Positions 45,001 to 48,000 of a DNA stretch of 64,000 bases are shown here, piece by piece (within the stretch, counting starts at the first letter, position 1; each line of letters opens with the position of its first letter). A program made the position numbers. The stretch is from assembly GCF_013315695.1 (NCBI RefSeq), contig NZ_CP054353.1, one strand, 5' to 3'. This stretch comes from Escherichia coli (GTDB lineage: Bacteria; Pseudomonadota; Gammaproteobacteria; Enterobacterales; Enterobacteriaceae).

Positions 45001-48000
45001 TACGTGAAAAAAGACGTTACAGACTTTCAGGGGAAGCCGTGGGCTGGTGACTGGAAATATGTACCGACAAAAGAGGATTGTAACGACAGGCCGAACTATG
45101 AAATTCAGGCCTTATTCATCGGCCCGCCAGTCCCGGTGACATCAGAAGGACTGGTTAAAGCCGTGCGCTTTTATGAACAGGTAAAGCGTGAGAATCCGCC
45201 AGTCGAAACAGGAGCATGGAAGGATGCTGTTGACTGGGTGCTCAGAGAGGCCTGCTGCGCTGCCATTCTGGGTAAAGCCGACAATCCACCAGCATCCGGC
45301 AATCAGGTTAGCGAATTAACAATGTGGGTTAAACGACTGGTCAGTCAACTGAAAAAAGCTCAGCCGGACTGCAAATTACCGGAGAAGGCGATGGATTACC
45401 TGAAACGAAATGGACTGATAAGCGTGGAGGATGTTTTACGATGAATATTTAGACTAAAGAGTTTGTAACGCTATGTAAGTGATTTTTTCTGGTTTAGATA
45501 TTTATATGTCCGGCCAAATTGAGGTGTGTTTAAATGTTATTGCACATTGATTGTAGGGGGAATAATGAAAAACGCATTGCAGTTTTTGTTTGTTGCGTTC
45601 TGGTTGTTCGCATCATGTATGCCCATCATCTTCACAGCAAGGTATATGGAAAAAATTGATGTTTTGATATTAATGTTTGGACATATAAATGCCCTTTTTT
45701 TAGGGGTGTTCATGGCGGTCATGTGCATTGAATACTGGCGGTAAATACAGCGAACGCCATTGGTTTAGTTGGATATTTACTGTGCCGGACAAAAACGGTT
45801 TGCGGGGAAATCTTAGTTAAGTAGAATAACTGCGGGTGCTTGAGGCTATCTGTCTCAGGCATGAACACCAAAAGGCAGATAGAGAAAAGCCCCAGTTAAC
45901 ATTACGCGTCCTGCAAGACGCTTAACATTAATCTGAGGCCATATCTATGCGACACATAGAGATTAGCCTCTTACGGACCGAAAGGTCAAGGAGAAGCAGG
46001 CTATGAAGCAGCAAAAGGCGATGTTAATCGCCCTGATCGTCATCTGTTTAACCGTCATAGTGACGGCACTGGTAACGAGGAAAGACCTCTGCGAGGTACG
46101 AATCCGAACCGGCCAGACGGAGGTCGCTGTCTTCACAGCTTACGAACCTGAGGAGTAAGAGACCCGGCGAGGGAGAAATCCCTCGCCACCTCTGATGTGG
46201 CAGGCATTCTCAACGCACCCGCACTTAACCCGCTTCGGCGGGTTTTTGTTTTTATTTTCAACGCATTTGAAGTTCTGGACGGTGCCGGAATAGAATCAAA
46301 AATACTTAAGTAGCGCGCAGGGATAAGAGGGATGGTCCCTTAAAGGGGAGAGCTAATTATCCGGAAGGATTCTGATGATGAACATCGAAGAACTGCGTAA
46401 AATTTTTTGTGAAGATGGCCTCTATGCTGTGTGCGTTGAAAATGGAAATATTGTTAGTCATTACCGCATTGTGTGTTTGCAAAAAAATGGGGCTGCGTTA
46501 ATTAATTTTGTGGATGCCCGAGTGACGGACGGATTTATCTTGCGCGACGGTGAGTTTGTCACTTCATTACAGGTATTGAAAGAGATCGGAATAAAAGCTG
46601 GCTTTTCTGCTTTTTCAGAAGAATAAACTCATCTACAATCTTGCGCGGGGCTGAACTCCCGCTGAGTAACACCGTGCCACCGGAGAAAACCGATGGCACG
46701 CAACGCAAAATATTACAAACATGATAATTCGACCGTTCTTGCCCACACGCACGAGCGGTATTCTCACGCATTTAAGTCAGACTGGTACCAGCATCCCCCA
46801 TGCACTGAAGAACAGGCCGAATGGCTCATTCAGTGTTACCGCAGGCGCGGATGCGAGGTTAAAAAAGCCCTTAGCCTCGACTACCGTCACTGGATAATCT
46901 CCGTCAGGCTTCCTTACTCCGAACGCCCACCGCGTCTGTCCCGCACATTCCAGCAACGCATCTGGAGGTAACGTGCGGGTATTACTTCGACCTGTTCTGG
47001 TACCGGAACTCGGGCTGGTGATCGTTAAGCCGGGCAGTGAATCCATGCCGGTATTCCACAATACCCGGGTACTGGTGGAGCCGGAACCGAAAAGCATGCG
47101 TAATCTGCCGTCCGGGGTCGTTCCTGCCGTTCGCCAGCCGCTGGCGGAGGATAAATCATTACTGCCATTTTTCAGCGACGAACGAGTGATTCGTGCTGCT
47201 GGTGGCGCTGGCGCATTGTCTGACTGGTTACTGCGCCATGTTAAATCCTGCCAGTGGCCACACGGCGATTATCACCACAGTGAAACCGTCATTCACCGTT
47301 ATGGTACCGGCGCAATGGTGTTGTGCTGGCACTGCGACAACCAGCTGCGCGACCAGACCTCCGAATCACTCGGGCAACTTGCTCACCAAAACCTGTCTGC
47401 ATGGATGATTGACGTCATACGCCATGCAATGAATGGCTCGCAGGAACGGGAATTATCGCTGGCTGAATTATCCTGGTGGGCGGTCCGCAATCAGGTGGCG
47501 GACGCGCTACCGGAAGCGGTATTACGTCGTTCGCTGGGGTTGCGTGCGGAAAAAATCCGCTCAATGTACCGTGAAAGCGACATCGTACCGGGAGAGCAGA
47601 CCGCCACCAGCATACTGAAGCAGCGCACAAAAAATCTTGCGCCGCTGCCTCACGCCCACCAGCAAAACCCGCCACAGGAAGAGACGGTGGTCAGCATTGC
47701 CGTTGATCCTGAGTCTCCGGAATCTTTCATGAAACGACCTAAACGTCGCCGCTGGGTTAACGAGAAATACACACGCTGGGTGAAGACACAGCCGTGTGCG
47801 TGTTGTGGTAAGCCAGCCGACGATCCCCATCACCTGATTGGTCATGGTCAGGGCGGAATGGGGACAAAATCTCACGATATTTTCACGCTACCGCTGTGTC
47901 GGGAGCATCACAACGAGCTTCATGCGGATCCTCTGGCGTTCGAAGAAAAGCATGGTTCTCAGGTTGATTTAATTTTTCGTTTTCTTGATCACGCCTTTGC

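Follow-up and report, generated by a model that had tools for sequence, protein, structure and literature searches.

Directly 5' of the hok/sok locus of a lambdoid prophage in Escherichia coli lies a short, very hydrophobic open reading frame (ORF), which raises the question of whether it is a gene at all and, if so, whether its product is one more small membrane toxin or serves the prophage and its host in another way. The ORF, of 59 codons, is found in a stretch of 64,000 nucleotides (nt) of contig NZ_CP054353.1 (RefSeq assembly GCF_013315695.1), hereafter the window; coordinates refer to the window unless a related locus is named, and L and P numbers are our labels for related loci and proteins. 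An earlier reading of the window (the original prediction) had pointed to a toxin or abortive-infection effector bracketed by repeats. Comparison of homologous loci identified the ORF, at the level of sequence, as a genuine small-protein gene that is uncharacterised. On balance, we consider it somewhat more likely than not that this hok-linked gene encodes an inner-membrane product of the moron type and that the repeats around it are incidental.

Identification of the gene and its predicted product

The elements of the ORF are the following.

45555-45561, + strand: Shine-Dalgarno (SD) sequence AGGGGGA, 4 nt before the ATG (from the sequence)
45565-45744, + strand: gene for a 59-amino-acid (aa) protein, predicted to be a two-helix membrane protein, stop codon included (ORF list, paralogue comparison, AlphaFold2)
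45695-45701, + strand: homopolymer of seven T (T7) within the ORF, site of rare +1/-1 frameshift alleles

The product encoded by 45565-45744 is MKNALQFLFVAFWLFASCMPIIFTARYMEKIDVLILMFGHINALFLGVFMAVMCIEYWR. Close relatives were found in E. coli or Shigella only, most with at least 85% identity. A HMMER search over 1.84 billion representatives resulted in the identification of a second E. coli subfamily (P0040/P0045) with 44% protein identity and a length of exactly 59 aa. The two subfamilies share the same start, the same stop and 59 codons at 60% nucleotide identity, with identities of 58, 71 and 49% at codon positions 1, 2 and 3, second positions being the most conserved. Between the subfamilies, non-synonymous (pN) and synonymous (pS) divergence in the ORF frame was 0.33 and 0.72, compared with 0.36/0.57 and 0.39/0.34 in the shifted frames, so that the pN/pS ratio was lowest in the ORF frame. 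The family has 19 invariant residues, among them W13, S17-C18-x-P20-I-I, T24, F38-G39, N42-A-L, E56, W58 and R59. The SD sequence carries a G>A variant at 45558, giving AGGAGGA, in 5 of the 23 unique sequences, and the paralogous subfamily has AGGGA in the same place. The ORF was intact in 201 of 202 full-length cassettes retrieved.

Structure prediction with AlphaFold2 on the family alignment gave helices at residues 2-24 and 31-58 joined by a 6-residue loop (mean predicted local distance difference test score 73.6), suggesting the product to be an inner-membrane helical hairpin. Both termini are probably cytoplasmic, judging from the charges K2, R26/K30 and R59 under the positive-inside rule. 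The description of a very hydrophobic two-helix gene of 59 aa with a strong ribosome-binding site, in AT-rich DNA directly 5' of hok/sok, was thus borne out by the ORF list, the SD sequence, the GC content and the Rfam match to the neighbouring locus.

Other readings of the same DNA were considered. A minus-strand ORF (63 aa in the window, and annotated on the minus strand in phage PhiR42_1) was rejected, as stops interrupt minus-strand ORFs in the paralogue. A GTG-extended version of 72 aa was likewise rejected, being without an SD sequence, whereas the ATG and its SD are conserved in both subfamilies. Frameshifted proteins from the T7 run occur in the protein database (P0019, P0020, P0023, P0024 and P0025); IMG/VR, however, contained no T8 and a single T6 allele, compared with at least 120 T7 copies, which puts frameshift alleles at no more than ~1%, and phase variation at this site was rejected on these counts. 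Mobile elements have also entered the region. The protein variants P0035 and P0037 end in sequence derived from insertion sequences (IS), indicating insertions within the ORF; an IS1-like end lies inside the upstream repeat R1 (described below) in L124 (~700-710, equivalent to window 45497); and L037 carries at 3194-4456, just before the downstream repeat R2 (equivalent 45754-45757), a 1.26-kb element with a 305-aa transposase-like ORF.

Polymorphism within the subfamilies bears on whether the ORF could be a neutral hitch-hiker, that is, a translated or translatable sequence with no selected function today, carried in a young cassette linked to hok and flanked by chance repeats. Variable sites in subfamily 1 number 8 of 180 in the ORF, compared with 21 of 209 in the flanks. 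In subfamily 2, three ORF sites vary, one of them shared, and the flanks have ~2.3% shared sites. All 12 ORF polymorphisms within subfamilies are non-synonymous and none is synonymous (9:0 in subfamily 1 and 3:0 in subfamily 2), a pattern that could be due to chance (roughly P = 0.04-0.08), relaxed constraint or diversifying selection. This pattern is what a neutral hitch-hiker might show, and the IS-disrupted and frameshift alleles, the confinement of the family to Escherichia/Shigella and the lack of any family or fold match point the same way. Against it stand the frame, length, SD and 19 residues kept despite ~40% nucleotide divergence, with pN/pS lowest in the ORF frame, the lower polymorphism of the ORF compared with its flanks, and the survival of the paralogue as the only intact ORF identified in a remnant of ~100-nt phage gene fragments. 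We regard neutrality as quite unlikely.

Family, annotation and occurrence

No family match for the 59-aa protein was obtained in Pfam, PHROGs, NCBIfam or PADLOC, PDB sequence profiles gave no usable match, and a Foldseek search against BFVD returned nothing usable (best E = 0.9, generic hairpins). The HMMER search together with a profile search found the two E. coli subfamilies and no others, and tblastn against phages and plasmids added nothing beyond them. A scan of one genome per species returned a single locus, L094 (JAIJJM010000167.1), on a 5.5-kb contig labelled as a metagenome-assembled genome of Collinsella sp.; since its protein is 95% identical to that of the window, this is almost certainly E. 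coli prophage contamination of the Collinsella bin. In the databases searched, the protein therefore represents an orphan family of two subfamilies, confined to Escherichia/Shigella.

The literature search found no paper describing this ORF. Public databases contain entries for the exact protein, deposited by several submitters under the names 'membrane protein' or 'hypothetical protein'; according to the feature tables, the Prokaryotic Genome Annotation Pipeline (PGAP) annotated the ORF in 0 of 9 RefSeq loci. In the search listings the feature beneath the match was 'none' or an unnamed 'hypothetical protein', and in L001, a related annotated locus, that entry is the upstream gene. Of three phage records that contain the cassette, one has an opposite-strand ORF annotated and two have an overlapping feature called 'hornerin'. 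The gene family has been overlooked by RefSeq annotation; the kind itself is familiar (small prophage membrane proteins) and does not constitute a new type of system. The cassette was present in 1584 of 5426 complete E. coli genomes, with a match covering at least 80% of 45440-45830 in 1551 of 1585 E. coli records.

A paralogue in a decayed prophage

In 1045 of the 5426 complete genomes, the remnant of a decayed prophage that occupies the Rac attachment site, between ttcA and uspF, contains the second subfamily (P0045; L096 6001-6180; also L095-L102 and L224-L227). Neighbouring phage genes in this remnant have been reduced to ~100-nt fragments, and hok is 5'-truncated with only its 3' half left. 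The paralogue is the sole intact ORF identified among these fragments and directly precedes the hok remnant. It was left unannotated by PGAP in every match listed and in the four loci inspected. A near-consensus extended -10 element, TGA(T/C)ATAAT, lies 75 nt upstream of its ATG (L096 5918-5926), reading TGACATAAT in most copies and TGATATAAT in some; the corresponding bases of the window are TGATTTTTT. No terminator was found in either the window copy or the paralogue.

An intact paralogue behind a strong promoter, in a dead prophage without functional hok or an antitoxin signature, argues against an unguarded toxin. The same retention argues against an obligatory partnership with Hok and in favour of a product that does the cell no harm or is of use to it.

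The cassette and its linkage to hok

Within the lambdoid prophage, the ORF is found where a packed string of + strand genes of the replication/nin region comes to its right end. In L001, genes for a YdaT-family protein, replication protein P, DUF1627, DUF977, DUF4406 and Ea22-like proteins lie upstream, and hokD, rem and genes for DUF968, RusA and Q lie downstream. The elements of the window around the ORF are listed here.

44929-45444, + strand: nin-region gene 5' of the cassette and last of the + strand string, 171 aa, PHROG 660 (function unknown) (ORF list, PHROGs)
45441-45452, + strand: four-codon stub ATG AAT ATT TAG, whose start overlaps the upstream gene's stop (ATGA)
45445-45786, + strand: AT-rich cassette of 342 bp (empty-site boundaries in L010/L011; GC content)
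45489-45518, + strand: repeat R1, in the 5' leader of the ORF
45760-45794, + strand: repeat R2, in the 3' flank of the ORF, ending at -40 from the hok transcription start
45800-45827, + strand: putative hok promoter, TTGCGG (45800-45805), 16 nt, TAGAAT (45822-45827) (from the sequence and the Rfam match start at 45834)
45834-46250, + strand: intact hok/sok locus with sok/mok leader, hok coding sequence (CDS) at 46003-46158 and terminator at 46227-46244

The gap between the end of the PHROG 660 gene (45444) and the ORF is 120 nt, and GC content falls to 34.5-40% over 45400-45800, compared with 48-55% in the flanks. The limits of the cassette were set by two prophages with an empty site, L010 and L011, whose match to the window breaks off after 45444 and resumes at 45787, the two parts being separated by 74 unrelated nt. 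The hok locus is common to both; the upstream gene has 94% identity in L010, and in L011 only its last ~120 nt match, at 82%. The 59-aa ORF is the only gene of the cassette, which in the manner of a moron forms a discrete insert between genes adjacent in related phages and departs from them in GC composition.

The 74-nt slot in L010 and L011 encodes a hydrophobic ORF of 27 aa, ATGA-coupled to the upstream gene, with the consensus MTW[S/P]EAFTT...VVYSIC.WG. This single-helix ORF, MTWSEAFTTVGIALAVALVVYSICRWG, is unannotated (L010 2742-2825, L011 2423-2506); between L010 and L011, 5 of its codons differ synonymously and 5 non-synonymously, suggestive of a second genuine micro-protein. In the window, the stub at 45441-45452 sits where this ORF starts and is all that remains of it. 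In a third type of prophage (L009 2386-2478), a hydrophobic 30-aa ORF with a GTG start, MVLVLKCALAITAVMAIYCLAIVLMDRLSD, stops ~20 nt short of the conserved portion of the hok promoter. Small membrane-protein ORFs may thus have come to occupy the slot 5' of prophage hok repeatedly. In other hok loci the junction with the left neighbour falls at 45787, 45814/5 or 45830, so that the conserved hok promoter region behaves as a recombination joint.

Among the matches listed, full-length cassettes run into the hok promoter, and wherever IMG/VR loci have sequence downstream of the cassette, this is the hok leader. All of the examined loci with the ORF had hok next to it; in the loci compared, the cassette is genetically welded to the hok promoter. 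Such linkage, kept across subfamilies that differ at 56% of residues, would be expected if the product were a partner of Hok, either a co-factor or a membrane protein antidote, within a two-gene module used at prophage induction. The lack of a terminator between ORF and hok and the other small hydrophobic ORFs that other prophages hold in the slot would agree with this, as would the report that hokW-sokW aids phage release, a prophage Hok being made on induction (PMC8621323). However, most hok loci are without the ORF (hok-like sequence in 4937 genomes versus 1584 with the ORF), the paralogue has been kept where hok is destroyed, so that its maintenance is independent of Hok, and shared descent with recombination joints at the conserved hok promoter can explain the linkage. 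A dedicated Hok partner is, in our judgement, very unlikely.

The hok/sok locus itself was recognised by the Rfam sok model RF01794, which matches 45834-46005 with 106.7 bits. The putative hok promoter fell below the stringency of the sigma-70 consensus scan; the sole match of that scan in 45300-46400 was TTGAAG, 18 nt, TAGAAT at 46267-46296, after the hok terminator and upstream of rem. This match contains ACGGTGCCGGA and TACTTAAGTAG, echoing the hok promoter region; the likeness is not significant, its score being reached by 342 of 2000 shuffles. A weak Rfam match to isrK at 46167-46248 (26.6 bits versus a gathering score of 50, E = 0.004), covering the 3' stem-loops and terminator of the hok mRNA, probably reflects a generic likeness among prophage terminator hairpins.

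It had been supposed that Qin carries relBE at the place of this gene. In fact, Qin-type prophages (ATCC 8739, WAT and phage PhiR42_1) carry the 59-aa gene as well as relBE, the relBE block being an insertion ~260 bp further downstream, in the hok translation-initiation region. The block, of 3.3 kb, comprises an ISNCY-family transposase pseudogene, ydfW, flxA, ydfV, relB and relE, and lies between two copies of the 15-bp sequence GGAGAAGCAGGCTAT of that region (equivalent 45989-46003), found in the Qin-type prophage of ATCC 8739 at L004 4051-4065 and 7364-7378 and also in L006 and L002. The hok CDS is thereby cut off from the sok/mok leader and from the cassette with the small ORF. In K-12, which has neither of the two subfamily genes, the right-hand junction alone has been kept (relE, 71 nt, hokD).

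The repeats flanking the ORF

The original prediction noted similar elements on both sides of the gene and took them for an insertion footprint or paired regulatory sites. Both copies are present, and the core TGGTTTAG..ATATTTA was found at R1 and R2 only within the window. Their alignment, TGGTTTA(----)GATATTTA(-)T.TG(-)CCGG.CAAA, is imperfect and needs a gap. Gapped local alignment of the two flanks scored 25, compared with 15.0 +/- 2.4 for shuffled sequences, and 7 of 2000 shuffles reached this score. The same score was reached by 12 of 3000 real pairs of the same geometry from the same 64 kb, so that about two such pairs would be expected per 64 kb and the similarity is within chance for a stretch of this length. 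A third copy downstream of hok (46279-46313) was dismissed as not significant, since 342 of 2000 shuffles reached its score.

The position of the repeats does not suit a footprint. R1 starts 45 nt inside the left boundary at 45445, and R2 crosses the right boundary (45786/45787) into the shared hok promoter region, its terminal CAAAA overlapping the A-tract that opens this region; the repeats are thus off the cassette ends, and there is no exact target duplication. Conservation of the repeats within subfamily 1 is uninformative, because the whole cassette is 95-100% identical there. In the 3' flank of the paralogue the left half of R2 is conserved (71% identity; 1 of 500 shuffles reached the score), and no upstream copy of this motif was found in the paralogous cassette, where the score was below the shuffle mean and R1 is not recognisably conserved. 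Comparison with homologous loci, which had been suggested as a check, accordingly spoke against both the scar and the pair of regulatory sites, the motif pair being absent from the paralogue. Most probably, the similarity of R1 and R2 is incidental to leader and trailer sequence, representing neither an insertion scar nor a demonstrated operator pair.

RNA-level signals and the toxin hypothesis

The size, hydrophobicity and strong SD of the ORF resemble those of small membrane toxins and, with hok/sok as neighbour, suggest a toxin that depolarises the membrane or an abortive-infection effector, of a type I-like or GhoT-like kind, that would be kept off in the lysogen and set free on induction or infection, with R1/R2 or long-range RNA pairing as control. 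Disruption of alleles by frameshift, IS insertion or truncation is in keeping with this reading. Some pairing potential was also observed: the leader at 45500-45511, within R1, is a perfect 12-nt complement of CDS positions 45679-45690; R1 (TGTCCGGC) and R2 (GCCGGACA) share an 8-nt complement; and the minimum free energy fold of the + strand had z = -2.07. Pairing was kept in 12 of 15 transitions at paired positions, although with a null keep-rate of 0.61 on this G/U-rich strand this corresponds to P = 0.10, and neither the leader/CDS nor the R1/R2 pairing is conserved in the paralogue.

A search for an antisense RNA or a cognate antitoxin, as the original prediction had advised, found neither. 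The scans identified no minus-strand terminator and no antisense promoter or terminator common to both subfamilies; there was no Rfam match inside 45440-45830; and no antitoxin-like gene is adjacent, the neighbours being the PHROG 660 gene and hok. No match to described toxin families (Hok/Gef, Ldr, Ibs, TisB, ShoB, Zor and others) was obtained in Pfam, NCBIfam or PADLOC at E <= 1, nor to defence profiles. Frameshift alleles are rare, and the paralogue is intact behind its near-consensus extended -10 in a dead prophage with a truncated hok. Taking both sides together, we regard a regulated toxin or abortive-infection effector as rather unlikely.

Proposed function

The retention of the paralogue, taken with polymorphism that is wholly non-synonymous, leads us to favour a role as a prophage moron for the product of this hok-linked gene. 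Transcription of the window copy would occur by read-through of the early rightward operon, which we infer because the window copy has no convincing promoter, and translation would start from the strong SD; the paralogue would be expressed constitutively from its extended -10 promoter. The product would then act in the inner membrane to the benefit of the carrier cell, the weakest step of the scheme. Its likeliest activity would be interference with a membrane step of other phages or with a host membrane protein, in superinfection exclusion, defence or membrane modulation. Such a moron-type role, which is drawn from context, is put forward tentatively; a self-standing killer toxin is less likely.

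Several points weigh against this proposal. The function is argued from context only, because the protein has no homology to any characterised protein. No convincing sigma-70 promoter was found upstream of the window ORF, and expression in the lysogen is therefore conjectural. Alleles disrupted by frameshift or IS insertion are present, and the 12:0 polymorphism pattern is less readily explained by simple purifying selection than by relaxed or diversifying selection. The polymorphism deficit of the subfamily 2 ORF is marginal (one shared site observed versus ~4 expected), and retention of the paralogue could reflect recent common ancestry rather than selection.

A bolder reading would make the protein a domesticated prophage membrane factor under arms-race selection, an unrecognised exclusion, defence or Hok-modulating determinant kept after decay of the prophage and of hok, with the slot 5' of hok as a general landing site; we consider this unlikely. 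Beside the moron-type role, toxin, neutral hitch-hiker and Hok partner weighed above, modulation of some other host protein accounts for the probability that remains.

With 1584 and 1045 of 5426 complete E. coli genomes as carriers, the gene and its paralogue each reach a frequency of between about one-fifth and one-third; named carriers include CFT073, O104:H4, JJ1887, ATCC 25922 and Shigella. Being common yet unannotated in the RefSeq loci and absent from the family collections searched, it illustrates how small prophage membrane proteins escape annotation. Should the product affect phage entry, membrane energetics or the action of Hok, prophage-host biology in pathogenic lineages would gain a common determinant; without a phenotype, the gene would be one more orphan moron.

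Comparison with known systems

With the Hok/Gef type I toxins the protein shares the character of a hydrophobic membrane peptide of at most 60 aa, a position beside a bona fide hok/sok locus and a long leader with potential long-range pairing. It differs in having two predicted helices versus one and in showing no Hok/Gef homology, and, in contrast to Hok/Gef-sok, conservation gave no support for an antisense RNA gene, a mok-like coupling frame or 5'-3' pairing of the fbi type. The type V toxin GhoT, with 57 aa and two transmembrane helices, is of similar size and resembles the predicted two-helix hairpin, but there is no similarity in profile libraries and no adjacent GhoS-like RNase gene, and where GhoT is encoded in a chromosomal two-gene operon, the present gene lies in the nin region of a prophage. 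Class II holins and pinholins are likewise small two-helix phage membrane proteins; the present gene, however, lies in the early nin region and not in a lysis cassette, has no Pfam or PHROG holin match, and in L001 is accompanied by an annotated class II holin gene ~5 kb downstream.

Phage morons that encode small inner-membrane proteins include HK97 gp15 and the T4 Imm-type superinfection-exclusion proteins. The 59-aa protein has no sequence or fold match to these, its window copy is without a recognisable promoter or terminator, and exclusion would be its presumed activity. In its organisation it nevertheless resembles them: one small gene, lying in AT-rich DNA inserted between conserved phage genes and variably present among close relatives, encodes a predicted small cytoplasmic-membrane protein, and one copy persists in a defective prophage behind a putative promoter of its own.

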